This document shows positions 31,201-48,988 of a stretch of DNA of 64,000 bases, in pieces. Both the position numbers and the translations under genes were made by a program. The stretch's first letter is position 1. Each line of letters starts with the position of its first letter. The notes under the pieces were generated by a model, which saw nothing but the letters and a program-made list of their open reading frames with translations, was not told the origin of the DNA and searched no databases. The stretch comes from a virus (lineage: Duplodnaviria > Caudoviricetes). The stretch is taken from IMG/VR virus record IMGVR_UViG_3300005686_000008; one strand, given 5' to 3'.

Positions 31201-31920
31201 TCTGCTAGTGTGGATATTCAATCTGTTGCGCAGAAATGGATTGACCATGCTATAAGTAAGACTTGTAATCTGCCTAATAACGCTTCGAAAGAACTTGTTG
31301 CTGAAGTTTATATGAAGGCGTGGGAGTCTGGATGTAAGGGCTTCACGGTTTATAGAGACGGATGCAGAACGGGTGTTCTTGTATCTGCAAATGAAGGTAA
31401 GAAAGAGAATATAACAAAGACAACAGCCCCAAAGAGGCCGTCAACTCTTCAGTGCGATATTCATCATACAAAATCTAGAGGACAAGATTTCTTTGTTATT
31501 GTTGGTTTATTAGAGGGTGTTCCTTACGAAGTTTTTGCAGGCAAGAATGGGTGTATCACTCACGAAAAGAAAGGAACTATAACCAAGAACAAGAGAGGTC
31601 ATTATGAACTCAAGGCAGAGGATGGTTCTACTATTGAAAATCTTTGCGAGCTATTAACGGACGAACAAGCTGTTATAACAAGAATGATTAGCTTGTCTCT
31701 TAGACATGGTTCTGATATTTCGTTTGTTGTAGATCAGCTTGAAAAGTCTCCTGGAGATATGACTAATTTTGGTAAGGGACTAGCAAGAGTTTTGAAGAAG
31801 TATATCGCCGATGGAACAAAGGTCTCTGGCGCAACTTGTCAAAGCTGCGGAAGTTCAAATGTTGTAAGAATAGAAGGATGTTTGTCTTGTAGAGATTGTG
31901 GTAATTCAAAGTGTGGTTAA
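28294..31920 (+). CDS. nrdJ: Class II (B12-dependent) ribonucleotide reductase with intein and C-terminal TSCPD/Zn-ribbon region
   Basis: SNCFV, RRGGVG, RRGALM, TNP|CGE, RRTGLG, APTGSVS, TSGIEP, AISKTCN, KGFTVYRDG. Confidence 0.93.
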   Translation: MMIMEKKENVKCGVENKVYTHQEAIERSLEYFNNDSFAASVFVSKYALRDNKGNILESDPDQMHRRLAREFARIESKYSNPLSEEEIYEYFKNFRYIVPQGSPMSAIGNPFQIQSCSNCFVIPSPEDSYGGILKTDQEQAQIMKRRGGVGFDISLIRPRGLETKNAARTTDGIGVFMERFSNTCREVAQNGRRGALMLTISCHHPEIRTFINIKKDLAKVTGANISIRLTDEFMNAVKNKTDVELRWPVNSKSPKISERVDAVELWKEIIDAAWLSAEPGLLFWDTAQKYTPADIYKDFGYESLSTNPCVTGDTWVMTSEGSRRVSDLIGVPFDAVVDGVRYPSDIRGFWNTGKKKTLVIKTKEGFEIECTPNHKILVASFEDRKKRTEWKEAKGIKLGDLLNLDNHSQITEWSGNGLFEEGYLLGSLVGDGCICGDTAYLSWWGGSKMVMMKYATDLANKVLKCRSDLGSGSYDSSSIEKHDRTGFNCKALKELAEEFGLDGSKNISDEIEKGSYQLYKGILMGWFDTDGTINFNKKGQRNDIRLCSSNLNNLYAAQRMLSRMGIISKIYSNRKEAGNRLMPDGKGGTKEYYCQSTHELVITKNNIKIFHDRIGFADPDKNDKLKKLVSSYMSRGLYAEKYVAEVFSINEGKEKDVYDCHIPSVHRFDANGITVHNCGEIVLSAYDSCRLMCVNLLSFVKHKFTDSARFDYKEFEEVVQVAQRLMDDMIDIEVEQVDKILAKIASDPESADAKHVEKNLWTRIRSACINGRRTGLGITALGDALAALGIRYGSKESVTITEKIYKSLAVGSYRSSCILAKERGAFPIFDAELEKGHPFLSRIWEEAPDVYELYKKHGRRNIANTTTAPTGSVSTLTQTTSGIEPAYMLFYKRRKKINPGDGESARVDFVDPKGDKWQEFFVFHHEFKEWMSKNGYTEEDIDKKANSQDDLPFFKKSPYYKATSNDVDWSASVDIQSVAQKWIDHAISKTCNLPNNASKELVAEVYMKAWESGCKGFTVYRDGCRTGVLVSANEGKKENITKTTAPKRPSTLQCDIHHTKSRGQDFFVIVGLLEGVPYEVFAGKNGCITHEKKGTITKNKRGHYELKAEDGSTIENLCELLTDEQAVITRMISLSLRHGSDISFVVDQLEKSPGDMTNFGKGLARVLKKYIADGTKVSGATCQSCGSSNVVRIEGCLSCRDCGNSKCG
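29218..30324 (+). mobile_element. Intein with LAGLIDADG homing endonuclease in the RNR active-site NPC motif
   Basis: NP|CVTGDT...TPNH...LLGSLVGDG...GWFDTDG...TVHN|CGE; 369 aa. Confidence 0.95.
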
Positions 31921-32548: not shown

Positions 32549-35500
32549 ATGTCATTCAAGTTTTTTGCAAGCCTGGATTTTACAGGAGAACCTACTGTTA
32601 CTCAGTTTAGGTTTGTATATGGCATGGGCGTTATGAAAGTTTGCCCTAGCCCAATATCTGACTATTCTACATTAACTATAAATGATGATCTGATAAACTA
32701 TTATGTTGACCTAGCGATAAGCCAGGGCTGGGAAGCTATCGCTTGGAATGAAGATAATTTGAGATTTTATATTTGGAATGAAGCAATGAGCGAGGCTGAC
32801 AAGGATTCAGCCCTTGATTGTCTCGTTGAAATATATAATAGATCAAAAGATAGAGCAACCGCTGGTGGTAGACCGGATTTGAAAATTGGTTGGTATGATA
32901 TCCCAGGAGGATATCCTGACCTGTATAATGTTATTTTGAGTTATAATAAGGATTCAGAAGATTCAGTAAATGTAAAAGCTTATCAAAAATGGCTTAATTG
33001 GATAACTAGACTTTCTCAAAGATACGAGGGAGGGCTGTTTGTATCGTCCCCATTTAATGATTGTTGCGATTTTGTTGCTCCAAATTTGCAACCCTTTTAT
33101 GGCAATGATCAAACGTATATAGATGATTGGAAGATTTTTGCAACGACAGTTCTTGGTAATATGATTGATGTTTCTAAAGATGATCCTCTATACGCTTTTT
33201 GTTCGTTTACCTTTAGTCCAACAACGGTTTATGCAGGCGTTCAAGTAAGCGGCACTAATATGTCTCAAATGGTTGAAACCATAAGGGGTTATGCGGACGG
33301 CTTTATTATAAACGGAGGATTGGCTGCTAATCGCACTTATTCCAATTGGTTCTGGAGACCTTCTGGAGCAACAGAAGCTAATGATCTTTCGCTATGGAAG
33401 ACTGTTTCCAGCGGTGCATTTTCTATGACCGTAGCAAATGTAAAGCTAAAGATACAGGGAGTTAATACTTCTTCTGCTGTTTCCATGACTCAGGTTGCTT
33501 CTATTTTGCAGACAGCAATACAATCTAAAATTAGTTCAGGACCAAATCCTTCGTTTGATGGGGTATATCCGTATCCTCTTGGTACTGTTACTGTAACTTG
33601 GTCATCCGCTCAAAAAGGTTTTTTGTTCAATATGACAACCAATGGCGCTTCAACGCCGATGCCTGCTAATCTTAGCAGATCTTTATTTACAATAGAATCA
33701 AAGAGCGTATGGGGTTCTACTGTTAGCGGAGTAGATCTTGCTTCTGACCAGTTCCTTGGAGTTGCAACTGTAAATGGTAATGATAAACCAGGAACAGAAC
33801 AATGGGTCTATGGAGGAACTGAAATAAGCAATGAATGGGAACTTTACGCCAGAGATGAAGATTGGTGGGGAGTCCTTAGCGAAAGTTCATCAGAAATCAT
33901 AGAATCTGATGAGTTCAAATACTTTATATCTTGTAGTATAACAGAACAGCCAACTCCAACTAGTTTTGAAGATGATTATGGCATTTCTTTTATGCAAACA
34001 GGAGGATGTACTCCTTGGACAGAAAGTATTGGACAAGCAGCCACAACTCTTCTTACTTCAACTCTTACTCTAAGTAATGCGAATATAGATGCTGCTATTA
34101 GTTCATATCTTAGTCCTTCTTTAGGAGTTAATCAAAAGAAGTTTTTTGCATTTGACTTAGAGGGTTATGGCATTTATCTAGACCCAACACAGTATAGCGA
34201 TACGGTTGTTGATAATATGCTTGATTCTTTCATTAATGCTTTTGTAAGAATGAAAGAAAGACTTGCTTTGCAAGGAATCTATGATGTAAAGATTGGAATA
34301 TATGCAAATCCTTGCTTTAAGAGTTACTATGCTCCGGCTTTGTATTTTTACGGTAAGGGAAATACATCGCAATATAATACAGATTATAATACATGGGTTT
34401 CTAAGTTTAGAAGAATGAACTTAAGAAAATCCGGCGATACATATATAACAAAAGCTTTCAATGATTATCTAGATTTTGTTACTTGTGATATTTATCCAAT
34501 TTTCGGAGAAGAAGATCCCCTTGATGATTCTTTCTTTAAGGAAAATCTTACGCAAGCGGTAAGATATATAAGCGGAGATAAGCCTTTATATCCGTTTTTG
34601 AACCCAGCTTTTCATCCTTCTTCTCCTTGGTCTTCTAAGCCTGTCAGCGGCGATTATATGAAGAAAATGATGACTTGGGTAAAAAGAATAGCAGATGGTG
34701 CTATTCTTTGGATTACATCAAGTCCAAGTTATAGAAGTCAAAGACAAAGACACTTTATGACTTCTTCTGGCGGTCCTCCCGCTGTTCCTACAAAAACTCT
34801 TGCAGATTGGCAAGGAATAACGAACGGGTGTTTCTCATATTTTGTTATTGGGTATTACAGAGATATTGAAAATGTTGATTTCTCAGTAGCAACAAGTATA
34901 GGCGGCGCAGAATCAACAAGTGTTGTCAATATTATAGAGGCGGCAATAAATGCAGACTTGTACTATATAAACAACTTCATATCTCAATCTGTAACATATC
35001 CAAGTCTTTCTATATCTAGACCATATGAAGTTGGTTCTGTATTTGTTGAATATAATTCAAATTCCTCAAACAACTCTCCAACAGCGTTGTCTCAGGTTCC
35101 TTGTTTTGAGTTTTCATATATAGATCCGGCAATAGTTTCCCCTCCAGATCAGAGTTCTTACACTGGTAGAGAATTTATTTATTGTTATTCTTATTCTGAC
35201 ACTCTTCCTGGTGGCGGAACAAATATTGGTACGGTAGATTGGATAGGGACATATACTTATACTTATCAAGAATATGATAGTAATGTTTATTCTGGACAAG
35301 ATGCAGATCCAGATGAATGGAATAATGGGTGGGTTGTTGATAATGATTGGTGGCACGCTTTTTCTTCAATGGCTGTTGCTAACAAATATAGTCAAGAAAG
35401 AACTCTTACATTTGCAGATAATATGGGAGTATATACTGGTTCATCTGTTACTGGGATGGTTTCTTCTTGGTCAGGAAAGCCAGCGCCATATGTTTTGAAG

Positions 35501-36830
35501 AATAGCGACTATGTTGATAGAGTTCATCTTGTATATACAAGTTCAACCGCCGGCTGGTCTCAGTTTACAGATTCTCTTATAACAACAAATTTGCAGAATT
35601 GTATAAATCAAAAAGCCACTTATTTTGTATGGGATATTGAAGGAGATTATTGTAACGTAATTTCTTCTAATAACAATGGATATCAATACGGAGTTTCAGA
35701 GGCAACTGTTGATTATAATCTTGATCAGTTTAAGTCTATATATAATAGAACTAAAGCGATTGCAGCATCTCTTGGTCATCCGGAAATTCAAGTTGGATTT
35801 TATGGTTCGCCATTTACGGCTAATACCTTTTATGGAGCTAGATATTGGGCAGATCCTGCATCATATGCTGGATGGGAAACCGCTAGTTTGCAGTTCAGAG
35901 ATGGTTTGATAAGAATAAATCAAAGATTGTCTAGCGGAACAACTTATGATGATCCATTCTTGGATTACAATGATTTTCTTGCTCCATCTTTTTATCCTCA
36001 ATCTGGTAATACAAAGCATGCATCTTCTGAAAAAGGAGAAAGAGACGCAATACAAGGCTTTATGATGAAAGCCATAGAGATTCTTGGTCATAGTAAGCGA
36101 TATCTGCCATTCTTTATGCCAACATTCTTTGAGCAAGGAGGACTCAATCCTCTTACTGGTTGGGCGCAGAAAAATTACAATATGCAAATGTTGTGTTCTA
36201 TTGCTGTGGAATATGGATGCGATGGCGGTATTATGTGGTCAGGCAGTTGGCCTAGCAATGTTGCTTCTGATCAAACTTTTACACCGACAGTTGTTAAAAC
36301 GCTTGCAAACTGGCAAGCAATAACGGATGGTTGTTTTATAATAGCGGTAGAAGGTTTCCCTGTAAAAGTTACTGGTTTGAATTTTTCAGCAGCAACAAGT
36401 ATTGGAGGTGCAGAATCAACAAGTGTTGCTAACATTATAGAAGCAGGCATGAATGCTAAGATTGCAACAATAACTATAACAGACGAGCCTTGGGCTAGTC
36501 CTTATGCAACCCCTCCAAAATCTCCAAGACATATTGGCGATGTAACTGTTGCTTGGGATGGAACTAAGTTTGTCATGAACTCAGATAAAGGGCTGTTAAA
36601 GTCTCCTCCGGGATGGGTAAGTCCTCCTGATTTTGAAAAGTCATATTGGGTTACTGCTGCTTGGTCAACTTGGGGAGCTGGAGCTTTGCCAGGAACAGAT
36701 ATTGGAGTTCCTCAATGGATTGGCAATCATAACGTTTGGACAAGTCTTACATTTACTAGAACGGATTTGGTAGATGAATTTGGAAGATGGGTAGAAGATT
36801 CTGGTTGGTGGGCAAGTTATAGTTCTTTTG
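32549..36830 (+). repeat. Three tandem ~450-490 aa diverged repeats
   Basis: Each has (W/F)(N/D)xE, KIGxY..P, DF..(P/C)..YP, LY.F..P.F, DG.I.W, W..(I/V)T.G.F and ends in xWW. ATSIGGAESTSV is exact in units 2 and 3. Confidence 0.8.
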
Positions 36831-39800
36831 CGTTAGGATCTTTGGGTAATAATATAACTAACAGAGTTGTACCAACTATAAATCTTGTAACTTCGTCTTC
36901 TGGCGATGTTCCATTTACCGTACACGTTGACGCTTCTAATTCTCTGTTTAATGGAGTAAATCCTCAAGATTGTATATTTGAATGGGATTTTGGAGATAAT
37001 TTCCCAACTTCTGATTCAAAAGCAAGGGGGTACGTTTCTGACCCAAGAAATGATAACGATGTAAATGCTATTGGAACTCCTCATAAGAAGACTTCTCTTT
37101 CAGCTAAGCAAAGAGGAATAAACGCTTCGTATACATATTGGCATGATAATAGCGGAACTCCATTTTTGATAAGTTTGAAGATTTGGTACAACGGAGTCGT
37201 AAGCGATACTGTTTATTATTCTGTAACAGCATCAGATCCTGTTACTGTTGCATATCCAACAAACGATCTTACTAAATGGGTTACTTTGACAGTGGCCCCA
37301 AATGATAGCGTTCTTCCTCCTGTTGATTCGTTTGCTACTATAAATGCGGCAATGGCGTGGATAGATGCAAATAGACCAGATGGGGAAGTTATTATAGAAC
37401 TTCTCACTGAGTATACTGCTACTTGTTCCAATTTCTTGCTCACATCAAAACTTACAATAAACAAGCCAAACATTATCATATATGGTTCTAGAACCTACAC
37501 AGAAAGTAATGCTATAATAGCGGCAGATAACTCTTCCTTTAATAGAGCAAGTCCAACTCCTTTGGTTGAAATAGGAGCTGCTGCATATAATGTTCATTTT
37601 TATGACGTACAGTTTGGAGCTTCTGAAGATATAAGCGGAGATGGCTTGGCAGGACAAGGAAGTGATAATACTTCAAATCTAATAGGCTGTAGCGTACTTT
37701 CTCCTTCGTCTGCGTCTGATATCATCAAGAATGTGGTTTTCACGAATTGTCAGTTTAGGAATCTTTATCAAGCAACCAATTCGTCTCACTTTGTTTCTGG
37801 CATATATTTCAATCAATGCCAAACCTCTACAACAAAGATAAAGAGCCACGATTTGATGGGATACAATATAGTGATGAATGGATGTTTGTTTGGAACTCTA
37901 AGCGGCATAGCTGATGATGCTCTTTCTTTTGCCGTTAGAACTCCTACTGATTCGCCAATTAACTTTGGTTCAACTCTTGGCTCTTCAGAAAAGTTCTCCA
38001 TGAATTTCTGCAACGTTTGTCATAACGCATATTTGCATGGAGACAGTATTACATCTTCTGGTCCGTTTAAGATTACAAATGCAAGATTTGTTTCAATATA
38101 TGGAAACTACTTGTATGATGGGTCTAGTGTTGTTGATGATTCATTCTCTGTAAGAATACATGCAAATGAGATTTATGCAGGAGGAACAAAGAGTTCTCTC
38201 GTTATTACGGCTCCGTCGTCTGATATTACCATAGCTAACAATGTTCTTTTCCCAAGATCTTATACGACAGCAAATACAAGATGCAATTCTGGAATACTTG
38301 AGTTTGATGGTTCTTATGGACTAGTCAACAACATAAAGATAATCAATAATACAGCTATCGCTAAGTTTAATACCAATTATGCAAAGGCATTTTGGAATCT
38401 TTCAAGGCCTAATAATGTTGATATTTCAGATCTTGAGTTTGTAAACAATCTTGCAGTAGAAGAACCTACTCAGTGTATTTCTAGTTGGGTTATGGTTGAT
38501 TCTGATGTTAGCGCTTATATTGTACGATTTGAAAACAATTTGTGGCCTCAAAGAATTGGGCAGATGAATTTCGCAATAGTTACAGGACAAGATATTACTT
38601 GGAGCGATTGGGATGCGGCTGCATATGAAACGAACTCGTCTCAAATTGATATATTGAGTCATGATTTGAACTTTATATACAAGTATAAGCTTTGGAGTTC
38701 AACATATCCTAATATTGCAACTTCTTCGGTTTTGCATTCTGCTGTATCAAAAGACTATAACGATAACACTAGGGATACTTATTCTTCTGGAGTTGGTGCG
38801 ACAAAACCAGATTTTGCTCCAGTATATCAGATACCAACATTATCTGTTACTTCTAGCATAACAACAAGAACTAGGACTGTGGATGGATTGTGGACTCCTC
38901 CGGCTGGGTCTCAAACTGGATTTGTAACTTTAGTCGATTCTTCTGAAACAACCGTTAATGGTTCGTATACTTCTGTTCCTAAGCCAATTATTAGTAGTAT
39001 AAATGGCGCTGTTGGTTTTATAAACATGGACCCAACAACATTGGATTCTTATACAAGTAGAGCTTTTAGAGTAAAATACAGTCCAGATTATCAGGAGCAG
39101 CAAGGATATACTGATAATGTAAAGTCTATTTACTTCGGCATAATAAAAGATACATCTGATAGCAACTTTATAAAGATGATGTGCAGAATAGTTAAGACAG
39201 ATGACTCTGTTCATGTACTGAAAGAGAAACTAAGTAATCATCTGACTATAACTAGTTTATTCAATGAATTGACCAATTTCCAAGACGGCATTGGAGTTGT
39301 TGGTGTTCAGTTTGACTTGATGGGATGCGGATATCTTTCTCCATCTAAGATTGAAATGCTTGATGCTGATAATGATACGGATTTAGTTATTACATCTTCT
39401 AAGTTTGATATACTTAATTCTTGGTTGGTATATAACTTTGATTCAACTCAAATAGATATTGGAAACTTCATCAAGACAACAGTGAGCGTAGATGCTCAGT
39501 CTGATGGATATGATGTTACTATTACTTATTTGAATGACGGTCCGGTTCCAGATAATACTGACAACTTACCGGGAGATGTAAGGCAGAGACTCGGTGGAAT
39601 TTCTATTGACGGTATTCTTGCTGGTGTTAGAAGTTGTTATGTTGACCAACAAGAGGGTTCTACTTTGGTAGAATATGATACTTGGTTCAAGAATTATGCC
39701 GGCTCAACGCTCAGTTATCCTTTTGATAGATTCTCTCCAACAACGATTCTTGTTGGAGAATCATACTGTGTTGGAATTTCTGTTCTAGAAGATTTTGCAA

Positions 39801-42800
39801 ATACAAATCTCAATGTAAACGAGATTGTTTCGCAATCTTCTGGTAAAACCATTGTTACTAATGTTTTGTCTGGCAGAGCTGATGGAGAACAATATTGGAA
39901 TTCTTCGCCTCATCTTTTGGGTTCTCTTGCTTATGGAGAATCATATTCTATTACGATTTCTGTAAGAATTACAAGGAATATAAGAAACTGGATGGTTTCA
40001 GTATCTCCTTATAAAGATTACTTTACAGATAATTTTGGAGGGGTTCAGTTCCAGAAAGATCCAAGACCATTTGCTCCTATAGTCCCTGCTGTTGCAAGTA
40101 ATGGTCAGCCTTTGTATTATAGTTCAGACGAGGACGCTTCCAATCAAAATCCTGCAAAATGGGGCTGGGCATGGTGGTCTAATAAGATCAAGAACAATTA
40201 CAAGCTCAGCGGTTACGATAGACAGCTTATGTGGAGTTCTTCCGGCTTATATTTCAATGATAATTCGCATAACTACCCGTCAATAGTGTTGACTCCTTTC
40301 TTGGATGATACCGGAACTTATCCTCAATCTATTTCAACAACGCAAAGCGACTCTTGTTATACTTTGTCAGGTGAAAACTGTGTTGCAGGAGAGTTTGTAG
40401 TTAATTCTCAACTTCTAAAAGATACATTTTATATGCTGATTGATGCTATACAAGAAGTTCCGGTCTTTGGCTTCTATCAGGGTTACGGAAGTCTTGTTCA
40501 TCGAGATTGGAATCCAGAGAACAGGGATATTGAGCCAGTTGAAAACATGCAAGATCAGACCGTTGTTACTGATTTTATGGATCAGATTCACTTAATGGCT
40601 TATTATGGAAAAACCAATTGGCTAGGTATTGATTCTTATTCATCCGGTGTTTCTGGAATGCAGAACGCAGTTAGATTGTTTGATTTTATCAATAGCAAAT
40701 ATAACGGTTTGAGGATTATTGCTGAAAAAACTCCAGAAGATATACTTTGTAGAGATACAATATCATTTGTTAGCTCTAAAGATATAAAGGGTCCGCATCT
40801 TTTGGCTGATTATCTTGTTCCTGGGCATGAGCATGCCGCTGTGGTTTATTTTGACAATATGTGGGAAGATTTCCCAACTACAGAATATGGTTCTTCCCAT
40901 ATTCTCAATGTAATGGCAGCGCTAGCAAGACAGGGTTATGTTGTTGGAAGCATGGAGCCTGTAAATATCAAGACAAGCGGAATCTCTACTGAAACATTCA
41001 ATGCAGTAGATAGAAGATATATTTACGCTTCTAAACCATCCTCTGTAACGCAACTTCTTGCTCCTAAGAATGTTCATCATTCTATCATAGACGCAAAATC
41101 AAACATAAACTATCCATCTATTAATGAGCAAAAGATTACTCTTTGGTGGGACGAAAATACAGAGGGAGATTTTAGCCATTATATATTGTATAAAGCGCCA
41201 ATTATAAATGGTCAAATTGATCCAAACGGCCAATATCAGATCAAGGCATACCTTAAGAATCCTTTCTTTGTTGATAATCAAGTGTATCCTGGAGAGACTT
41301 ATTACTATAGGATTGCTTCTGTTGATGTGTATGATAATGTATCCTCTCAAACTTCGTATCAAGTAACCAATATTGCGGATAGTCAGATTCTTAATCCTCC
41401 TGCTACTGTTTCTGCTACAGCTAACTTGACTGAATACAATATTGAAGTTGCTTGGGAGCCTCCGTCTTCTGAATTCCAGCCATTATCATCTCTCAAATCT
41501 CCTCCAAAGGTATTTATACAAGGAGGAATGGATTCTGTTGGAGCATTGTCTTCTCCTCTGTTTGATTTACCATTTGTTTATCTGTATGTTAATGGGGTTA
41601 TTTCTTGGTATGATGGCGATTCAAGAACAATGGCTCAAAGAGCTACTGATGCATTCAATAGGGTGGTTAGCATTAGAAATATGTGGCTTGCCACAACTGG
41701 AAGAGGAAGAACTGCTGAAAACTTTAGATGGGCATTCTGGCCTCAAGGTTTTGGTTATGGATGGGGAGATGTGTCAACAAGACCATTCTTTTACGAGTCT
41801 GATAGGCTGTCGAATGGAAAGTATTCTTTATTCCTAGAAAACTGCATAGCAGATACAAGACCAAGGATGCAGGAGTTCTTCAACACTTTTGCAAGTCTGT
41901 GTAGCGCTGCTGGAATCCCGGATCCTGTATATGTAGATCCAAGTTATCAAAATGGAATGTCAATAGCAGGAGGCCTAACAGGAGACACTTATTCAGAACA
42001 TGCTCAGTGGCATAGCTGGATTATGTCAGATCCTAGGTCAACATCTGTTTTGTTCAATGGCGTAGAAAGCTATGCAAGTTATGCTGCAAGAGCTACGGAT
42101 ATTTACGGAAACTCTATTCCTGCAAACGAATTGTATGCCAATCCTTCTAGTTTGGATACCACTTCTGCGGCTAGAACATGCGCTTATGTTGTTCCGAAGA
42201 TGGCGGCTGCTGATTATGGTCTTTGGAAAATGATATATGAACCAGCAAAAGACGTATGGCCTAGCGTTCTGACTGGAAACTTCTCGTATCACGGAGCGAC
42301 TACGACGTATATGGGAGGCGGATATAGGTTCAAAGAAAGCGCTGTTGGTTTTGGTTCTAATATGTTTGCCGACGTTCAAGTTCCTGTCAATTTTGGTTCT
42401 TATCTATATGATGAATATTCTCTTGCAACCAATTTACTTACGGATAGCTATTTGACAAATATAGCCATTTTGAATCTTGACATTGACAAAATAAAAGACC
42501 AAAGCGAGCTATTCAAGGCTATGAGAATTGCGCAGTCCTCATATGATATTCAGGGATGTTTTGCATCGAATCCGAATAAGGAAGTTGCTTTGTGGTTGCA
42601 ATATAATGACTATAATCCGTCTATATATAACAACATATATGATAGGTCTGGCGATAGATATCCGGATGGTTACGGGTTCAAGGCTGTTGGGTTAGATGAC
42701 AGAGAAACAAGCATGAATATGTATAGAATGCTTATTAGAACAGATTGCAATATGGTTGGGTATTATTGCGGTCAAACAATGCAGGTTTCCGATAGAAAAG

Positions 42801-42868
42801 CATTACACACCTATGACACTCTATATGAAATTCTTTCTAATCTAGGAGAAGCCGGTTACGTTATGTAA
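32549..42868 (+). CDS. Giant (3439 aa) putative virion-associated multi-glycosidase/adhesin
   Basis: Three tandem glycoside-hydrolase-like units, PKD (VPFTVHVDAS..FEWDFGD), right-handed beta-helix region, further enzyme-like domains and FN3. Confidence 0.65.
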   Translation: MSFKFFASLDFTGEPTVTQFRFVYGMGVMKVCPSPISDYSTLTINDDLINYYVDLAISQGWEAIAWNEDNLRFYIWNEAMSEADKDSALDCLVEIYNRSKDRATAGGRPDLKIGWYDIPGGYPDLYNVILSYNKDSEDSVNVKAYQKWLNWITRLSQRYEGGLFVSSPFNDCCDFVAPNLQPFYGNDQTYIDDWKIFATTVLGNMIDVSKDDPLYAFCSFTFSPTTVYAGVQVSGTNMSQMVETIRGYADGFIINGGLAANRTYSNWFWRPSGATEANDLSLWKTVSSGAFSMTVANVKLKIQGVNTSSAVSMTQVASILQTAIQSKISSGPNPSFDGVYPYPLGTVTVTWSSAQKGFLFNMTTNGASTPMPANLSRSLFTIESKSVWGSTVSGVDLASDQFLGVATVNGNDKPGTEQWVYGGTEISNEWELYARDEDWWGVLSESSSEIIESDEFKYFISCSITEQPTPTSFEDDYGISFMQTGGCTPWTESIGQAATTLLTSTLTLSNANIDAAISSYLSPSLGVNQKKFFAFDLEGYGIYLDPTQYSDTVVDNMLDSFINAFVRMKERLALQGIYDVKIGIYANPCFKSYYAPALYFYGKGNTSQYNTDYNTWVSKFRRMNLRKSGDTYITKAFNDYLDFVTCDIYPIFGEEDPLDDSFFKENLTQAVRYISGDKPLYPFLNPAFHPSSPWSSKPVSGDYMKKMMTWVKRIADGAILWITSSPSYRSQRQRHFMTSSGGPPAVPTKTLADWQGITNGCFSYFVIGYYRDIENVDFSVATSIGGAESTSVVNIIEAAINADLYYINNFISQSVTYPSLSISRPYEVGSVFVEYNSNSSNNSPTALSQVPCFEFSYIDPAIVSPPDQSSYTGREFIYCYSYSDTLPGGGTNIGTVDWIGTYTYTYQEYDSNVYSGQDADPDEWNNGWVVDNDWWHAFSSMAVANKYSQERTLTFADNMGVYTGSSVTGMVSSWSGKPAPYVLKNSDYVDRVHLVYTSSTAGWSQFTDSLITTNLQNCINQKATYFVWDIEGDYCNVISSNNNGYQYGVSEATVDYNLDQFKSIYNRTKAIAASLGHPEIQVGFYGSPFTANTFYGARYWADPASYAGWETASLQFRDGLIRINQRLSSGTTYDDPFLDYNDFLAPSFYPQSGNTKHASSEKGERDAIQGFMMKAIEILGHSKRYLPFFMPTFFEQGGLNPLTGWAQKNYNMQMLCSIAVEYGCDGGIMWSGSWPSNVASDQTFTPTVVKTLANWQAITDGCFIIAVEGFPVKVTGLNFSAATSIGGAESTSVANIIEAGMNAKIATITITDEPWASPYATPPKSPRHIGDVTVAWDGTKFVMNSDKGLLKSPPGWVSPPDFEKSYWVTAAWSTWGAGALPGTDIGVPQWIGNHNVWTSLTFTRTDLVDEFGRWVEDSGWWASYSSFALGSLGNNITNRVVPTINLVTSSSGDVPFTVHVDASNSLFNGVNPQDCIFEWDFGDNFPTSDSKARGYVSDPRNDNDVNAIGTPHKKTSLSAKQRGINASYTYWHDNSGTPFLISLKIWYNGVVSDTVYYSVTASDPVTVAYPTNDLTKWVTLTVAPNDSVLPPVDSFATINAAMAWIDANRPDGEVIIELLTEYTATCSNFLLTSKLTINKPNIIIYGSRTYTESNAIIAADNSSFNRASPTPLVEIGAAAYNVHFYDVQFGASEDISGDGLAGQGSDNTSNLIGCSVLSPSSASDIIKNVVFTNCQFRNLYQATNSSHFVSGIYFNQCQTSTTKIKSHDLMGYNIVMNGCLFGTLSGIADDALSFAVRTPTDSPINFGSTLGSSEKFSMNFCNVCHNAYLHGDSITSSGPFKITNARFVSIYGNYLYDGSSVVDDSFSVRIHANEIYAGGTKSSLVITAPSSDITIANNVLFPRSYTTANTRCNSGILEFDGSYGLVNNIKIINNTAIAKFNTNYAKAFWNLSRPNNVDISDLEFVNNLAVEEPTQCISSWVMVDSDVSAYIVRFENNLWPQRIGQMNFAIVTGQDITWSDWDAAAYETNSSQIDILSHDLNFIYKYKLWSSTYPNIATSSVLHSAVSKDYNDNTRDTYSSGVGATKPDFAPVYQIPTLSVTSSITTRTRTVDGLWTPPAGSQTGFVTLVDSSETTVNGSYTSVPKPIISSINGAVGFINMDPTTLDSYTSRAFRVKYSPDYQEQQGYTDNVKSIYFGIIKDTSDSNFIKMMCRIVKTDDSVHVLKEKLSNHLTITSLFNELTNFQDGIGVVGVQFDLMGCGYLSPSKIEMLDADNDTDLVITSSKFDILNSWLVYNFDSTQIDIGNFIKTTVSVDAQSDGYDVTITYLNDGPVPDNTDNLPGDVRQRLGGISIDGILAGVRSCYVDQQEGSTLVEYDTWFKNYAGSTLSYPFDRFSPTTILVGESYCVGISVLEDFANTNLNVNEIVSQSSGKTIVTNVLSGRADGEQYWNSSPHLLGSLAYGESYSITISVRITRNIRNWMVSVSPYKDYFTDNFGGVQFQKDPRPFAPIVPAVASNGQPLYYSSDEDASNQNPAKWGWAWWSNKIKNNYKLSGYDRQLMWSSSGLYFNDNSHNYPSIVLTPFLDDTGTYPQSISTTQSDSCYTLSGENCVAGEFVVNSQLLKDTFYMLIDAIQEVPVFGFYQGYGSLVHRDWNPENRDIEPVENMQDQTVVTDFMDQIHLMAYYGKTNWLGIDSYSSGVSGMQNAVRLFDFINSKYNGLRIIAEKTPEDILCRDTISFVSSKDIKGPHLLADYLVPGHEHAAVVYFDNMWEDFPTTEYGSSHILNVMAALARQGYVVGSMEPVNIKTSGISTETFNAVDRRYIYASKPSSVTQLLAPKNVHHSIIDAKSNINYPSINEQKITLWWDENTEGDFSHYILYKAPIINGQIDPNGQYQIKAYLKNPFFVDNQVYPGETYYYRIASVDVYDNVSSQTSYQVTNIADSQILNPPATVSATANLTEYNIEVAWEPPSSEFQPLSSLKSPPKVFIQGGMDSVGALSSPLFDLPFVYLYVNGVISWYDGDSRTMAQRATDAFNRVVSIRNMWLATTGRGRTAENFRWAFWPQGFGYGWGDVSTRPFFYESDRLSNGKYSLFLENCIADTRPRMQEFFNTFASLCSAAGIPDPVYVDPSYQNGMSIAGGLTGDTYSEHAQWHSWIMSDPRSTSVLFNGVESYASYAARATDIYGNSIPANELYANPSSLDTTSAARTCAYVVPKMAAADYGLWKMIYEPAKDVWPSVLTGNFSYHGATTTYMGGGYRFKESAVGFGSNMFADVQVPVNFGSYLYDEYSLATNLLTDSYLTNIAILNLDIDKIKDQSELFKAMRIAQSSYDIQGCFASNPNKEVALWLQYNDYNPSIYNNIYDRSGDRYPDGYGFKAVGLDDRETSMNMYRMLIRTDCNMVGYYCGQTMQVSDRKALHTYDTLYEILSNLGEAGYVM

Positions 42869-42877
42869 GGAGAAAAT

Positions 42878-44905
42878 ATGGCGATACCTTCAGATTTTGC
42901 ATACTATGAAATTTACAGAGCAATAGAAATTAATGGAACATATTCATTAATTGGAACATCTACAACTACAAACTTTGTTGATGAAACAGCGGAACTTGGC
43001 AATACATATTGCTATAAAATCGTAACAGTTGATTTGTTTGGAAACAGGTCAGAATACAGCCCTGTAAGTTGTGTTTTTTTTTCGATACAGGGACCAACCC
43101 CGGAGGAGGGGAGCCAACAGACAATTGCGAATCCTACAGCAATACTTTCAAAGGACAATATCGTTTGCGTATACAGAGAGGGAGACGCAGACAGCCTCGC
43201 TTCCGCATTAAGATACAAAGAAATATACAGCCTCGATGACGATCAACTTATATCTGTTCCGTGTTCCAATATTGAAATACTGTCTGATTATATTTCTTTT
43301 CAAACGGAAGTTGAAATACCGTTGAGAAGCGCTTTGGTTTCAGAGCCTGTTAAGAACAGAAGCGTGTATGCTATTATTCTAATGCCATATGTTCCCGGAG
43401 GATTTAGAGACGGCAGCGATACTATTTCGTCAACTTCCAGGCTTGCCAGGATTTTCCATTCGTTTGTAAAGAACGAAATCAATCCTCTTTATAATAGACA
43501 GGTGTTTAGAAGGTATGATGGTCTTGATGCTTTTCAGTCTCTTATTTGTACCAGAATAGATGGTCCAAATCTTATATCTCAAGCATGGTTGGATAATATT
43601 GAAATAGCAAAAGGAAGATTACAGGTTGGAGGTAATTTCTATCTTGATTCATATTCTGCATATTCTTTTTCTGGAGCTTCTGATTATACATCTCAGATGG
43701 TTGATTTTTCCAATAATTATGTTGATAGGCTTGGTATGACTGTTCAAAGAACATCTCAAGTATCTCTTTCTAGAGATCCGTTCTTTTCTAGCGTAGAAGA
43801 TGATTCATTTTTCTGGGGATGGGGAGCTGATAGGGGTTCTCTGTCTTATTTCAAATCAACGGCAGAAATTAGGGCGTTCTTTTACAATGCAGATTTTATT
43901 GGCGGAATAACGATGAGAGACCTTGATGCTAATACTTGGCCTATATTAGCTATTAGAGAGGGTTATATTTCTTCTGCCGGTTGCATGTCAGGTGATAGCG
44001 CTGCTGTTTTCTTGAGGCCTGTTCCTTTTATGGATGCTCTTTTTAGAGGAGCAACAATGGGAGAGGCTATGATTTATTCGCAACCATTGCTTAACTCGCC
44101 AATGGCTGTTTTTGGAGATCCGCTATCTAGCTTTGTTTTCCCCATCCCGTTTAGTGAATCAACTCTTATTGAGCCAAATAAGGCATGGCAAGATGCAGAA
44201 AACTGTCTTGCCGAGTCTGTTGCTTGTATATACAGGAAAACCAAGGTTTTAGAAGAACTTAGAAGATATGTCGCTAGCGGCTCTGATGAAGTTGTTCAAG
44301 AGGAGCTTATATATGCTTTTGACCAACTTTCTGGAGAGTTTGACGATTATTCTTGGAGGAATGATTTTGTTAATCTAACAGGAAGTATGATTAATTTTGT
44401 TGTTGATAGGAATGCCACTAATTTTGATTTTGCGTATCCGAATTTGAATCAATATTTGACTCATTCTGGCAATAAGATGGCTAGTATTGTTTTGGAAACA
44501 CTACAAGATCCGGAACTTGTTAGTTCTATATCTCCTTCTAATATTGAAACGGTAGGTTCTTGGAATTTCTATGCTAATATAGAACATTATCCCGGCGATT
44601 TCAGGTTCTATCATTTTGAAATGCAGATTGCAAGAGAGTATGAAGATTTTGAAAGAGGTCTAATCTTGCTTTCAAAGGACACCTTTTTAGATGTTACGAA
44701 TTGGTATTTTGAAGATTATAATGGGGATTTTCAACAGTTTAATAGTAATGGAATAACTAGTAACTACGAGAATAGATTGGTTAAATATGTAAATAAAGAC
44801 GACGAATTGTTAGAGAGGGCGACTTTCTATTGGTTTAGAGTTAGGCAAAAAGACGATTTGCAAGAGTTTTCTTGGAGATATTCTCGCATTCTAGTTTACT
44901 TGTAA
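42878..44905 (+). CDS. TIGR03790-like protein with N-terminal partial FN3
   Basis: VCVY..DSLASALRY, NPLY, CTRIDGP, RGATMGEAM..SQP.L..AVFGDPL. Confidence 0.65.
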   Translation: MAIPSDFAYYEIYRAIEINGTYSLIGTSTTTNFVDETAELGNTYCYKIVTVDLFGNRSEYSPVSCVFFSIQGPTPEEGSQQTIANPTAILSKDNIVCVYREGDADSLASALRYKEIYSLDDDQLISVPCSNIEILSDYISFQTEVEIPLRSALVSEPVKNRSVYAIILMPYVPGGFRDGSDTISSTSRLARIFHSFVKNEINPLYNRQVFRRYDGLDAFQSLICTRIDGPNLISQAWLDNIEIAKGRLQVGGNFYLDSYSAYSFSGASDYTSQMVDFSNNYVDRLGMTVQRTSQVSLSRDPFFSSVEDDSFFWGWGADRGSLSYFKSTAEIRAFFYNADFIGGITMRDLDANTWPILAIREGYISSAGCMSGDSAAVFLRPVPFMDALFRGATMGEAMIYSQPLLNSPMAVFGDPLSSFVFPIPFSESTLIEPNKAWQDAENCLAESVACIYRKTKVLEELRRYVASGSDEVVQEELIYAFDQLSGEFDDYSWRNDFVNLTGSMINFVVDRNATNFDFAYPNLNQYLTHSGNKMASIVLETLQDPELVSSISPSNIETVGSWNFYANIEHYPGDFRFYHFEMQIAREYEDFERGLILLSKDTFLDVTNWYFEDYNGDFQQFNSNGITSNYENRLVKYVNKDDELLERATFYWFRVRQKDDLQEFSWRYSRILVYL

Positions 44906-44915
44906 AGAGATAATT

Positions 44916-45422
44916 ATGTCAGACTTAGTACGAGGTCCAAATCCTGATGATGGTCATAGAATAGGAACCTATGATTATCGAGTTATAACGGAAAAGATAT
45001 CCGAAGCATATGAATTGGGTAATGAAGCCCTGTCGCCTCTTATCTGTATGTGGAATAATATACAGAATGCAGATGTTAATGAAAGACAAAGGCATAAAAC
45101 TGAACTTCAGAGCTATTTGAGAAGAACATATGCTCACATAATATTCAAGCATTTGGATAATCCGCAAGCCGTTTATAACGCTATTAGGGCTTTAAATACC
45201 CATGTTCTTGATAAATACGGAGAAGCATACGGGTATGAGGATCTTGATTCTTTTTTGATAGACCAGTTTTTGTCTGTTCCATTAACATATGCCATTCTTT
45301 CCGAGAATGCTGGATATACGATAACAATGGTAGGAGATTCTAAGGCTAGATGGTCTGATATCAATATTCCTTGGAAGGATATAACTCTTCCGATGAATAA
45401 GATAGGATGGGAGAATCTATAA
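44916..45422 (+). CDS. Hypothetical protein
   Basis: Operonic ORF. Confidence 0.7.
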   Translation: MSDLVRGPNPDDGHRIGTYDYRVITEKISEAYELGNEALSPLICMWNNIQNADVNERQRHKTELQSYLRRTYAHIIFKHLDNPQAVYNAIRALNTHVLDKYGEAYGYEDLDSFLIDQFLSVPLTYAILSENAGYTITMVGDSKARWSDINIPWKDITLPMNKIGWENL

Positions 45423-45970: not shown

Positions 45971-48900
45971 ATGGCTAAAGAAAAACAAAACAACAAACCT
46001 AACAGGCCAAGCGAAACTGTTGATCTTTTCAAAGAGCTTAGAAATAAGATCAAAGAAGACGTTATTGCTTCTTCTAGGATTCCAAGTATAATAGAGTTTG
46101 TGTATGATAAAAAGTACCTTGGTCTTCCTTTTCAGAATCCAGCGGTTATTCCATATGATATACAAGAGTTGATACTTAAGTGTTTCTATAGGGGAAGTCC
46201 GGGAAATGAAAATCTAGAACTAACACAGAAAGACTTGGACATTATAGCAAAGAACGATCTCAACAATCCTCTTAATGGAGCCTTGTTGGATAAATGGAAT
46301 TCAATGGAAAGATTCATTGAACTCGTTCTTGTTTGGGGTCGTCGTTGTCTTTCGGAAAATTGCGAAATAGTTGACCCCAAAACAGGTAAATTATGGACGC
46401 TAGGCGAACTATGGAACTATGGAAAAACAGACTTAGAATCATGGACATTCAATGAAGAAACTTCGTTAATGAATATAATTGGTGACTGCAATCTTGTTTA
46501 TCAGGGCGCTAGAGAGGTTTATAAGGTTCAAACGCTTTCGGGCCATGAGATAGAAGCAACAGATAATCATCCTTTCCTAACAGAAGAAGGTTGGAAACAA
46601 CTAAAAGAATTGAAGCCAAAAGACAAGGTAGCTCTTGTTTCTTCTCAGCCATTTTTCGGTAACTCTACGGAAATATCAGAAGATGAAGGAGCTATACTTG
46701 GCTATGTAAGTAGTAATTCGTGCGATTCTGTCGGATGTTATATTGCTACAACATTGCCAGATGGAGATGTTTTCTTAGACTTTAAGAGCAAAATGCTTTC
46801 TCTTTCTTCGAATTCAAAAATAGAAAGCGCTATGGATCATTCTATCAAAACATTTGATGATAGAAAATACAGTCATGTGTATGCTCAAAAAGCAGTTAAG
46901 CCGCCAGAATCTAATCTGATTACATTCATATACAATAATGGAATAAAGAATAAGTCTGGTGAACAAAAGTTTGTTCCGCATCGCATTTTTGTCGCCCCAA
47001 AGAATGTTGTTGCAGCGTATTTGAGGTCTCTTTTTAGTTGCAATGCGGTATTGCATATTTCAAAATTATCAAGATTTACTTGTAAAATAGAAGCATCATT
47101 TCAAAGTATTAGCCTTACAAAACAAGTGCAACACTTGTTGTCTAGGTTTGGTATTTTTTCTTCTTTTCAATCTAAGTTAGTAAATAACAAGTTAGAGCAT
47201 ATTTTGACTATCAACAAGAACGCTTGTGTAAAACTGTTCTTAGAAGAGATTGGACTAATAGGTTATAATGACGAAATCAAAGATGTTATACAAAGCGTTG
47301 ACGGTAAAGATTCTTCGGTTCGAGTTTTTTCTCCAATAGTGTCTATCAAAAAGATAGGAACAAGAAGAACATTTGATATTCAGGTATCTGATAAGCCGTC
47401 TTTGCAGAATTTTGTTTCTAATGGTTTCATCTGTCATAATAGCGGTAAGGACTTCATAACATCAATTGTTGCTCTTTATGAAGCAATGAGACTGCTAGAA
47501 TGTCCTGGCGGAAACCCATATCAGATGTATAACCTTGGTATGGCCGTTCCATTTACTATTCTAACAATAGCAAACTCTTCAAGACAGGCTAAGATTCTAT
47601 TCAGAGAAATCAAAGAAAAGGTTCTCAACAGCGAATATTTCGCGGACAAGATAATTCCAGAAGGCATAACGGCAGATGCTATTCATTTCCTTACTCCAGA
47701 AGATAAGAAAAGAAATGAAGAACTTATCTCTAAGGGTTTTGCTCCTAATCCCGGGTCAATAGTAGTTATGTCAGGACATAGTAATTCTGATACTCTTGTA
47801 GGTATTTCTTGTTACGTTCTTCTGTTGGACGAAATCGGTTTGTATAAGAATACCGCAGGTTCTTCTTCTGGTGATGCTATTTTCAACTCTCTTGCTCCCG
47901 CAGTAAAGACCTATGTTAGAGAATTGCCTAAGAAAGATAAGGCTGGCAATATCATTATTGGTCAAGATGGAAAGCCAGAGACAGAGAAAGTTTATGATGG
48001 TAAGATTATCTGTCTTTCTACTCCAAGAGGTAAAGAGGGTGTATTCTTTGATTTATACAATACGCATATGGAGACGGCCCATAGGCTTGTTTGTAAGGCT
48101 GCAACTTGGCAAGTAAACCCAATGCAGTCCAAAGAAGGATTGATGGCGGCTTTCCCGGACATGCCAGAAGACAAGTTTAGGATGGAGTTTGGAGCGGAGT
48201 TTTCTGGTACTGCTGGTGAGAACTTCTTCCCAGAAGAGGTTGTAGACCAATGTTTTGCTGAAAAAACCTTGAAGTTTAGAGATCATGGGTCTCCGGGTAT
48301 TTTCTATTATGCCCATTTAGATCCTGCATCTTCTAGTCACAACTACGCTCTTGTTGTTGCTCATAAAGAGGTTTTCTTCAATCCAGAAACGATGAAAAAG
48401 GATTGGAGAATAGTAGTTGATCATATCAAATATTGGACTCCGATGCCAGGTAAGCCTCTTTCTGTAGAAGAGATTGATGAATATGTTGCCGAACTGAATT
48501 CTAGATTCTGTTTTGGAGTTGTTACCTATGACCATTTTAATAGTCAGGTAAGCATTAATAAACTAAGAAAGAGAGGAGTTCCAACAAAGATGACTCCGTT
48601 CTCTAAACAATATAAGAACATCATATATGATAACTTGTATCAAATAGCCGTTCAGGGTAAACTCTATATTCCAAATCATTTGCTTCTTAAGAATGAAATG
48701 AAGAATTTGCAGAGGAAATGGCTTGACGCAGGCTATAAAGTATACCCTAAAAAGGATGGAGATGTAACAACAGATGACATTTGTGATGCTCTTGCAGGAG
48801 CGTGTTACAATTGTGTAGAAAAAGATATTAGTAAACTTCCGCAAGGAAAATTGGTCTCACTTCCCGTACAGGGTAATAATGATATAGTATGGAGATCTAT

Positions 48901-48988
48901 GCAGGGAACACCTTATGGTGTTGGTCCGGGACAACAAGTTGCAAGGCAATTGGAGCGAAGAGCTTCTTGGCCTCGCAGAGGAGTATAA
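45971..48988 (+). CDS. terL: Terminase large subunit with intein
   Basis: Spliced Walker A WGRR|SGKD, Walker B LLLDE, LSTP, EFGAEF, nuclease HLDPA, YDHFN, DDICDALA. Confidence 0.92.
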   Translation: MAKEKQNNKPNRPSETVDLFKELRNKIKEDVIASSRIPSIIEFVYDKKYLGLPFQNPAVIPYDIQELILKCFYRGSPGNENLELTQKDLDIIAKNDLNNPLNGALLDKWNSMERFIELVLVWGRRCLSENCEIVDPKTGKLWTLGELWNYGKTDLESWTFNEETSLMNIIGDCNLVYQGAREVYKVQTLSGHEIEATDNHPFLTEEGWKQLKELKPKDKVALVSSQPFFGNSTEISEDEGAILGYVSSNSCDSVGCYIATTLPDGDVFLDFKSKMLSLSSNSKIESAMDHSIKTFDDRKYSHVYAQKAVKPPESNLITFIYNNGIKNKSGEQKFVPHRIFVAPKNVVAAYLRSLFSCNAVLHISKLSRFTCKIEASFQSISLTKQVQHLLSRFGIFSSFQSKLVNNKLEHILTINKNACVKLFLEEIGLIGYNDEIKDVIQSVDGKDSSVRVFSPIVSIKKIGTRRTFDIQVSDKPSLQNFVSNGFICHNSGKDFITSIVALYEAMRLLECPGGNPYQMYNLGMAVPFTILTIANSSRQAKILFREIKEKVLNSEYFADKIIPEGITADAIHFLTPEDKKRNEELISKGFAPNPGSIVVMSGHSNSDTLVGISCYVLLLDEIGLYKNTAGSSSGDAIFNSLAPAVKTYVRELPKKDKAGNIIIGQDGKPETEKVYDGKIICLSTPRGKEGVFFDLYNTHMETAHRLVCKAATWQVNPMQSKEGLMAAFPDMPEDKFRMEFGAEFSGTAGENFFPEEVVDQCFAEKTLKFRDHGSPGIFYYAHLDPASSSHNYALVVAHKEVFFNPETMKKDWRIVVDHIKYWTPMPGKPLSVEEIDEYVAELNSRFCFGVVTYDHFNSQVSINKLRKRGVPTKMTPFSKQYKNIIYDNLYQIAVQGKLYIPNHLLLKNEMKNLQRKWLDAGYKVYPKKDGDVTTDDICDALAGACYNCVEKDISKLPQGKLVSLPVQGNNDIVWRSMQGTPYGVGPGQQVARQLERRASWPRRGV
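46346..47440 (+). mobile_element. Intein in terminase Walker A with degenerate LAGLIDADG domain
   Basis: GRR|CLSENC...ATDNHPF...FICHN|SGK; 365 aa; endonuclease motifs read ILGYVSSNS and LRSLFSCNA. Confidence 0.93.

Follow-up and report, generated by a model that had tools for sequence, protein, structure and literature searches.

How can one small domain come to be divided between two genes? The question is raised by a 64,000-nucleotide stretch of DNA (the window), part of the 370-kb IMG/VR virus record IMGVR_UViG_3300005686_000008, whose completeness is estimated at 73%. Within it, a giant protein (P0001) carries a complete fibronectin-III (FN3) domain followed by the first two strands of another, and the next gene, which encodes a TIGR03790-like protein (P0002), opens with the strands that are missing. 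A first-pass annotation of the window had offered two explanations for this arrangement: that strand complementation in trans forms a coupler between the two proteins, or that the insertion of a domain had broken an ancestral fusion. We find that the two pieces are complementary, that the same cut recurs in related huge phages with different carriers, and that the hairpin held by the giant is conserved, and we consider it probable that the second FN3 is a natural two-chain domain, complemented in trans, which joins the giant to the TIGR03790-like protein. The A-B piece is referred to below as the plug and the C-G piece as the socket.

An FN3 domain cut at a gene boundary

An FN3 profile was built from the paired junctions of relatives, one intact relative and the complete upstream domain of the giant, and was run against all 5996 six-frame open reading frames (ORFs) of the 370-kb genome. 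The complete FN3 of P0001 (residues 2844-2946) matched the whole model, from position 1 to position 95, with an independent E-value (iE) of 4.5e-30. Residues 2946-2973 of the same protein matched model positions 2-29 only, and the start of P0002 matched positions 27-94 only (iE 6e-29). Given that the giant supplies positions 2-29 and the partner positions 27-94, the two pieces are exactly complementary, and the seven strands (A-G) of an FN3, judged by end-to-end coverage of the profile, are present only when both are combined. These matches bear out the first-pass annotation, which had placed a complete FN3 followed by strands A-B of a second in the giant, and strands C-G at the opening of the next gene. 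The result does not depend on the window's own sequences: with these left out of the model, P0002 still matched positions 28-94 of 94 (iE 1.5e-21), and the best genome-wide match to an A-B-only model made without the window was P0001 2940-2970 (iE 1.1e-5, or 0.0093 if only distant carriers were used). A virtual join of the A-B and C-G pieces aligns both with an intact domain from a relative (P0017) and with the upstream complete FN3.

Curated families also begin their matches at this point. The window socket starts at position 28 of 95 in Pfam GH85_C (E 0.0014; 19.5 bits against a cut-off of 27), and a homologous socket starts at position 26 of 84 in Pfam fn3 (E 0.0059; 17.2 bits against a cut-off of 25). 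The curated Pfam gathering cut-off was reached by none of the window socket, the homologous socket and the complete upstream FN3, the last of which scored 24.0 bits with fn3 (cut-off 25). At the fold level the assignment is clear, as Foldseek matches the first 70 residues of P0002 to FN3 domains such as 3mpc, with a root-mean-square deviation of 1.4 Å over 61 columns. Within residues 1-68 the AlphaFold2 model of P0002 has four strands with predicted local distance difference test (pLDDT) values of 78-92, after which comes a disordered linker. In the AlphaFold2 monomer of P0001 residues 2850-3439, the C-terminal barrel folds independently with a pLDDT of ~90; the A-B hairpin forms in that model, but is unpacked and has a pLDDT of ~34, and is therefore no part of the barrel fold.

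The boundary between the genes could be read directly. The giant ends in ...GYVM with a TAA at 42866-42868, an AAGGAG follows at 42867-42872, and the ATG of P0002 (which begins MAIPS) stands at 42878, confirming the earlier statement that the second gene has a ribosome-binding site of its own. The unrelated domain of some 470 amino acids (aa) that had been described between the hairpin and the stop is likewise there, with 467 residues lying between strand B and the stop codon. Neither a misassembly nor a recent accident accounts for the cut. The junction, comprising stop, ribosome-binding site and start, is identical in a separately assembled JGI contig (616/616 bases) and the layout recurs in phages that were assembled separately, so that the misassembly which the first-pass annotation had allowed for was not borne out. 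The features of the two genes are collected in Table 1.

Table 1. Coordinates in the window of the two genes, their parts and the gene that follows them
Feature	Position	Strand	Evidence or remark
Giant protein P0001, plug carrier	32549..42868	+	3439 aa; ORF list and translation
Complete FN3, P0001 residues 2844-2946	41078..41386	+	FN3 profile 1-95, iE 4.5e-30
Orphan FN3 strands A-B (plug), P0001 residues 2949-2972, core Trp 2969	41393..41464	+	Profile positions 2-29 only
Pro/Ser-rich linker past strand B, P0001 residues 2973-2986	41465..41506	+	pLDDT <50 across model residues 93-131
C-terminal (beta/alpha)-barrel domain, predicted glycoside hydrolase-like, P0001 residues 2987-3439 (453 aa)	41507..42865	+	AlphaFold2 pLDDT ~90; Foldseek
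Gene junction: TAA stop, overlapping AAGGAG ribosome-binding site, 9-nucleotide spacer	42866..42877	+	Read directly
Partner P0002, socket carrier	42878..44905	+	675 aa; translation
FN3 strands C-G (socket), P0002 residues 4-69	42887..43084	+	Profile, AlphaFold2, Foldseek
Flexible linker, P0002 residues 70-92	43085..43153	+	pLDDT <50 at residues 69-79; length differs among homologues
TIGR03790-like core, gingipain/separase-type fold, P0002 residues 93-420	43154..44137	+	NCBIfam, Foldseek, Atlas
Helical region and C-terminal beta domain, P0002 residues 421-675	44138..44902	+	AlphaFold2 secondary structure
168-aa gene, no socket in the window; homologues in L070/L071 and L078 have a C-G socket and follow a second plug carrier	44916..45422	+	

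Plug and socket carriers in related huge phages

We found 53 homologues of P0002, nearly all on large phage-like contigs that mostly belong to huge phages. Most of them are 585-600 aa long, lack the FN3 piece and lie directly after dUTPase, and a scattered subset opens with the C-G piece. The cut in the B-C loop occurs at ~15 gene junctions in related huge phages. Six kinds of protein bear the plug there and three bear the socket, the latter being the TIGR03790-like protein, members of the 168-aa family and a socket-only protein of 92 aa (L080). Identity across the plug and socket relatives is 45-72%, and more than 10 phages, each assembled separately, share the layout.

The organisation of the window, in which a giant has a complete FN3, an A-B hairpin, the 470-aa domain and then a stop, is shared by L004/5, L006, L007, L009, P0058 and P0059. 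At ~3157-3310 in L006 there is a frameshift inside the giant's barrel domain, which a sequencing error or a broken gene may explain. Elsewhere the hairpin stands at the very end of its carrier. At L010, L013/L014, L078 and L080 it forms the last residues of a 1350-1960-aa protein (for example ...IRIAWN or ...LTLTWS), with the downstream gene beginning -4 to 16 nucleotides (nt) past it; at L079 it ends a 667-aa protein of different make-up, which overlaps the next gene through TAATG; and at L078 it also ends a single-unit glycosidase-like protein of 503 aa, after which comes a 228-aa protein opening at strand C. A second pair is present in the L005 and L009 records (loci L070/L071), where a 1410-aa protein ends in the hairpin and, 1 base past its TAA, a TTG-started 265-aa protein opens with the C-G piece, which a poly-Pro linker joins to a homologue of the 168-aa gene of the window. 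In L033 (~2851-2991) and L066 (236-379) the plug is carried by a mini-ORF of 46-47 aa, made of a hydrophobic N-terminus and the A-B hairpin, and is separated from the socket gene by an in-frame TAA and one codon ahead of the ATG. The sister of this form (P0017/L011) has the domain intact in a single uninterrupted ORF.

Across all fetched loci, matches to the A-B model are found only where a socket is present, except for the intact form and for free-standing proteins made of a plug and a barrel, and either 0-1 or ~456-487 residues lie downstream of the hairpin. The loci without a socket, of which there are ~35, have dUTPase or another gene upstream and no plug. At least 9 changes of socket state are required on the core-domain tree; in five independent contrasts the plug changed in the same way four times, in the opposite way never and showed no difference once (p 0.125, an underpowered comparison). 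The Pro and Trp of the hairpin are invariant in 13 of 13 plug carriers, and its mean identity among six giants is 55%, compared with 48% for the barrel domain. Judged from these alignments, the orphan hairpin is not decaying and is conserved like the folded domains that surround it.

The position of the plug in these relatives also bears on the order of events. Several clades have terminal plugs, among them that of the window, whose basal member (P0009/L010) has one, and at L010, L013/L014, L078, L079, L080 and L070/L071 the upstream protein stops right past strand B without a 470-aa domain. Because the plug forms the terminal residues in most relatives, the split is older than the TIM-barrel domain, which looks like a later addition behind the plug. 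The alternative put forward in the first-pass annotation, of a domain insertion that broke an ancestral fusion, found no support, given these barrel-less terminal plugs and the lack of any long fused homologue: a search among proteins of 1183-3375 aa gave a single match, P0083, which shares only FN3-like repeats. Failing to find such a homologue is weak evidence that no fusion exists. The barrel domain also occurs as a stand-alone protein, and two such free-standing proteins, P0064 (L015 5001-6575) and P0071 (L017 30-1568), begin with an A-B-like hairpin ahead of the barrel. The simplest history would be that the split came first, and that recombination through the shared hairpin sequence later brought a plug-plus-barrel module to the end of the giant gene.

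A probable joint formed in trans and the alternatives to it

If the second FN3 is a two-chain domain, then the giant would donate a two-strand hairpin (A-B), including the core Trp, and the product of the next gene would give strands C-G. The close coupling of the neighbouring cistrons, with spacers of -4 to 16 nt, would place both pieces side by side as they are made. The hairpin would then insert into the open half-sandwich and rebuild an ordinary FN3, thereby linking the glycosidase-like giant with the gingipain-fold (TIGR03790-like) protein at the latter's N-terminus. The B-C loop would hold both chain breaks, with the linker and TIM-barrel exiting one way and Met1 of the partner another. 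Such a joint would be portable in this phage group, where accessory enzyme genes would bear the plug and a conserved downstream gene would gain the socket. We infer that the pieces bind physically and pair 1:1, and that accessory polysaccharide-degrading modules are in this way docked onto a conserved phage protein. The coupler in trans that the first-pass annotation suggested is favoured by the comparison of relatives, with its ~15 junctions, a conserved hairpin and plugs only beside sockets, and draws weak support from modelling.

Several observations weigh against this two-chain joint, and the support that modelling lends it is weak. The complex model of the two fragments, a check that had been proposed with the first-pass annotation, scored 0.33 (0.39, 0.33 and 0.28 in separate runs), which is above the best of three controls (0.01) and falls in the weak band only. 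The contacts of the runs agreed to at least 75% and the pLDDT of the partner was at least 67. Among 80 solved complexes, 58 attain the mark used for such models, as against 2 among 110 mismatched pairs; those that attain it at 0.60 or below are only 7 of the solved complexes and both of the mismatches. Because a model that remembers a fold can pass its two halves, we give this result little weight, and the pass may reflect what the model remembers of intact FN3 folds. There are, in addition, more sockets than known plugs. At L012 (5917-6001) and L032 (gene start 3001) the socket gene comes directly after dUTPase, across an 83-nt gap without a plug ORF, and no plug for this lineage was found in the 25%-complete record; three different queries likewise gave no plugs for orphan sockets in the partial records of L032, L005, L009 and L010. 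P0004 (L004 4001-6241, 747 aa) has two tandem C-G sockets ~10 residues apart, with no A-B between them and a single plug upstream, and at L080 a 92-aa socket-only protein (2717-2995) and a core-gene socket both stand behind a single plug on a 1463-aa protein. A plug may also stand by itself: the genes around P0064 encode a glycosyltransferase and a phosphoesterase, among others, and its contig of 13.6 kb holds no socket. AlphaFold2 confidence for the socket is high even without the plug, which may again be fold memory, or the piece could be stable alone. Furthermore, the co-occurrence of plug and socket could come partly from the inheritance of one cassette. Plugs for the surplus sockets may be encoded elsewhere, as with the free-standing plug-barrel proteins.

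Some of these same observations would suit a different account, in which the C-G piece forms a small beta domain unaided or associates with a second C-G piece, the A-B hairpins do something else, and their adjacency marks the boundary of a mobile cassette inside an old FN3. The plugless sockets (L012/L032, the tandem in P0004 and the 92-aa L080 protein) and the high AlphaFold2 confidence for a lone C-G piece speak for it, as does the socket state, which has often been gained and lost on the core tree in a cassette-like manner. We nevertheless regard this account as unlikely, considering that an FN3 deprived of strands A and B would have one sheet down to strand E and no core Trp, that the hairpin keeps this Trp in all 13 carriers and is conserved like folded domains, and that plugs are found only beside sockets, on six unrelated carriers. 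A solved phage joint, that of Tuc2009, also operates by hairpin donation.

Far less probable still is a joining of the pieces into one chain, whether by recoding (stop read-through, a frameshift or a hop) or by protein splicing. In L004/5/9, as in the window, the spacer keeps the reading frame (9 or 12 nt), and an in-frame TAA and one codon are all that keeps the pieces apart at L033/L066, but over the junctions as a whole the spacers are 9, 12, 12, 13, 11, 16, 1, 1, 4, 7, -1, -4, 5, 3 and 3 nt. It is because these fall in all three frames, and because most junctions have a GGAG-type ribosome site and start codon of their own behind a TAA stop (TGA at L013), that we hold recoding to be unlikely. 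Neither intein residues nor a Hint-fold match was found at the junction with a library that does find inteins in the ribonucleotide reductase (RNR) and terminase genes, and a split intein or trans-splicing was rejected, as the break has no Hint halves or splice residues. An artefact of assembly or sequencing, or a recent inactivating mutation with the hairpin as its decaying remnant, is harder to credit than any of these: the source is a metagenome and the relative L006 does have a frameshift inside its barrel domain, yet the junction is identical in an independent contig, its layout is kept among distinct phages at 45-72% identity, and the hairpin, at 55% mean identity, shows no decay. A chaperone-usher donor-strand system was also considered and set aside, since the acceptor lacks strands A-B, its donor sits at a C-terminus or inside the chain, and the genes nearby are those for dUTPase, RNR, small proteins and terminase.

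Beyond the two-chain FN3 of the window, there is a wider proposal to which we give rather less than an even chance. The plug and socket could form a general portable system in this group of huge phages, such that any accessory enzyme gene ending in a plug is insertable before a conserved gene, which gains a socket, and cargo is swapped with the boundary lying inside the domain. Under this proposal plugs would also be borne by free-standing enzymes and by 46-aa mini-proteins, which would dock to sockets encoded elsewhere.

Partner proteins, precedents and implications

The proteins that would be joined resemble enzymes to differing degrees. For the giant's barrel, Foldseek gave weak matches to GH56, GH5, GH14, GH164 and PgaB-C (TM 0.3-0.5), its fold matches as a whole having E ~1e-4 and TM 0.2-0.5, and the alignment of the barrel family has conserved D, E and R columns. 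There was no Pfam match and no PDB sequence match for this domain, nor any similarity to the giant's earlier domains in an internal-repeat search. The modelled barrel appears to resemble TIM-barrel glycoside hydrolases weakly. The giant also has two matches to Pfam DUF3383/E217_gp31_N. The partner had been described as TIGR03790-like, which holds for its fold and falls short in score: Foldseek matches the core to gingipain K and separase, and its nearest Atlas structure neighbours are TIGR03790 clusters (TM 0.52-0.54 by query, 0.56-0.76 by row), while the NCBIfam TIGR03790 model, covered from position 1 to 314 of 316, gives 36.4 bits (E 4.1e-9), under the cut-off of 67. The His/Cys dyad of clan CD (gingipain C25, separase) was not seen in the P0002 family, whose 43-sequence alignment has no invariant His or Cys (Cys369 of the window protein is Ser in the consensus), and for this reason we do not call P0002 a peptidase. 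A search of the literature found no paper on TIGR03790.

The core gene of P0002 is one of the conserved genes that adjoin terminase in this phage group, and the phage genes of the window include RNR, dUTPase, terminase and tail-fibre-like proteins. Both the RNR large subunit (1208 aa, 28294-31920) and the terminase large subunit (1005 aa, 45971-48988) hold an intein with a LAGLIDADG endonuclease (Pfam Intein_splicing and LAGLIDADG_3 in each). A 176-aa protein at 45436-45966 matches tail-fibre PHROGs, a hint that virion parts are encoded in the neighbourhood, and its homologue in relatives has a weak Phage_phiTE_241_C match. DNA and protein searches of a phage GenBank collection returned no match to the region.

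Domains completed by a second chain have been described in several systems. In chaperone-usher and type V pili, an incomplete immunoglobulin (Ig)-like fold is completed by strands of another polypeptide, giving a very stable non-covalent link; the pilins lack one strand (G), and the donor is the N-terminal extension of the next subunit, which acts with a chaperone and usher or after proteolysis. The principle would be the same here, but two strands (A-B, with the core Trp) would be donated, genes for a chaperone or usher are absent and nothing implies a polymer. Naturally split inteins and the split ribonucleotide reductase of phages are further cases in which one fold comes from two genes and is reassembled in trans, the former being catalytic Hint domains that ligate their flanks and the latter enzymes split by a homing-endonuclease gene. 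The present junction has neither splicing residues nor an endonuclease, and the domain divided there would be a connector only.

The phage joint mentioned above has been seen in a crystal structure of Tuc2009, where a 25-residue C-terminal hairpin of BppU completes a sheet in domain 2 of BppA, giving a composite similar to a titin domain (PMC4742702). There, as would be the case here from the sequence, a hairpin of ~25 residues from one phage protein meets a small sandwich domain of another that is encoded nearby, and in the window a donor hairpin (residues 2949-2972) is found with an acceptor that starts at strand C, as in a joint of the BppU-BppA type. The Tuc2009 joint fastens separately made proteins together, and its composite is of the Ig/FN3 type (PMC4742702). 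The two differ in that the Tuc2009 acceptor is at the C-terminus of BppA, whereas here it is the first 70 residues of the downstream gene product, and in that Tuc2009 joins small baseplate parts of a siphophage rather than the giant glycosidase-like and gingipain-fold proteins of huge phages. Unlike in Tuc2009, the cut lies at the FN3 B-C loop, exactly on the gene boundary, and the window hairpin is internal and followed by a 453-aa domain. An engineered FN3 (monobody) cut in the C-D loop is, in the passage of PMC11666773 that cites Dutta et al. 2005, reported to reassemble from two fragments into a functional domain. As that passage presents them, those fragments are man-made, and the cut is in the C-D loop, whereas the pieces considered here are natural and divided in the B-C loop. 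A keyword search of the literature found no paper on split FN3 domains in phages.

The principle of a two-chain sandwich joint is not new, therefore, as Tuc2009 already provides it. What is new is the cut in the B-C loop exactly on gene boundaries, the nature of the carriers (mini-ORFs as well as giant multi-glycosidase-like proteins and a gingipain-fold protein), the movement of the socket between two families of partner and, in the window, a plug that is internal and precedes a whole enzyme-like domain. A principle known from one crystal structure is in this way widened to another cut site, other carriers and another phage group, with a joint that moves between partner proteins. For annotation, an FN3 whose first strand is C, or a protein whose last strand is B, may be taken as the sign of a partner. 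The plug (~25 residues) and socket (~70 residues) are a candidate natural non-covalent tag and catcher pair and, if the portable system is real, this peptide-tag/catcher pair could be borrowed for protein engineering. For the phages themselves, if the pieces do reassemble, then this would explain how very large and often exchanged polysaccharide-degrading proteins can be attached to conserved proteins without gene fusion, since it is the connector itself that is cut, with half of it kept by each gene.

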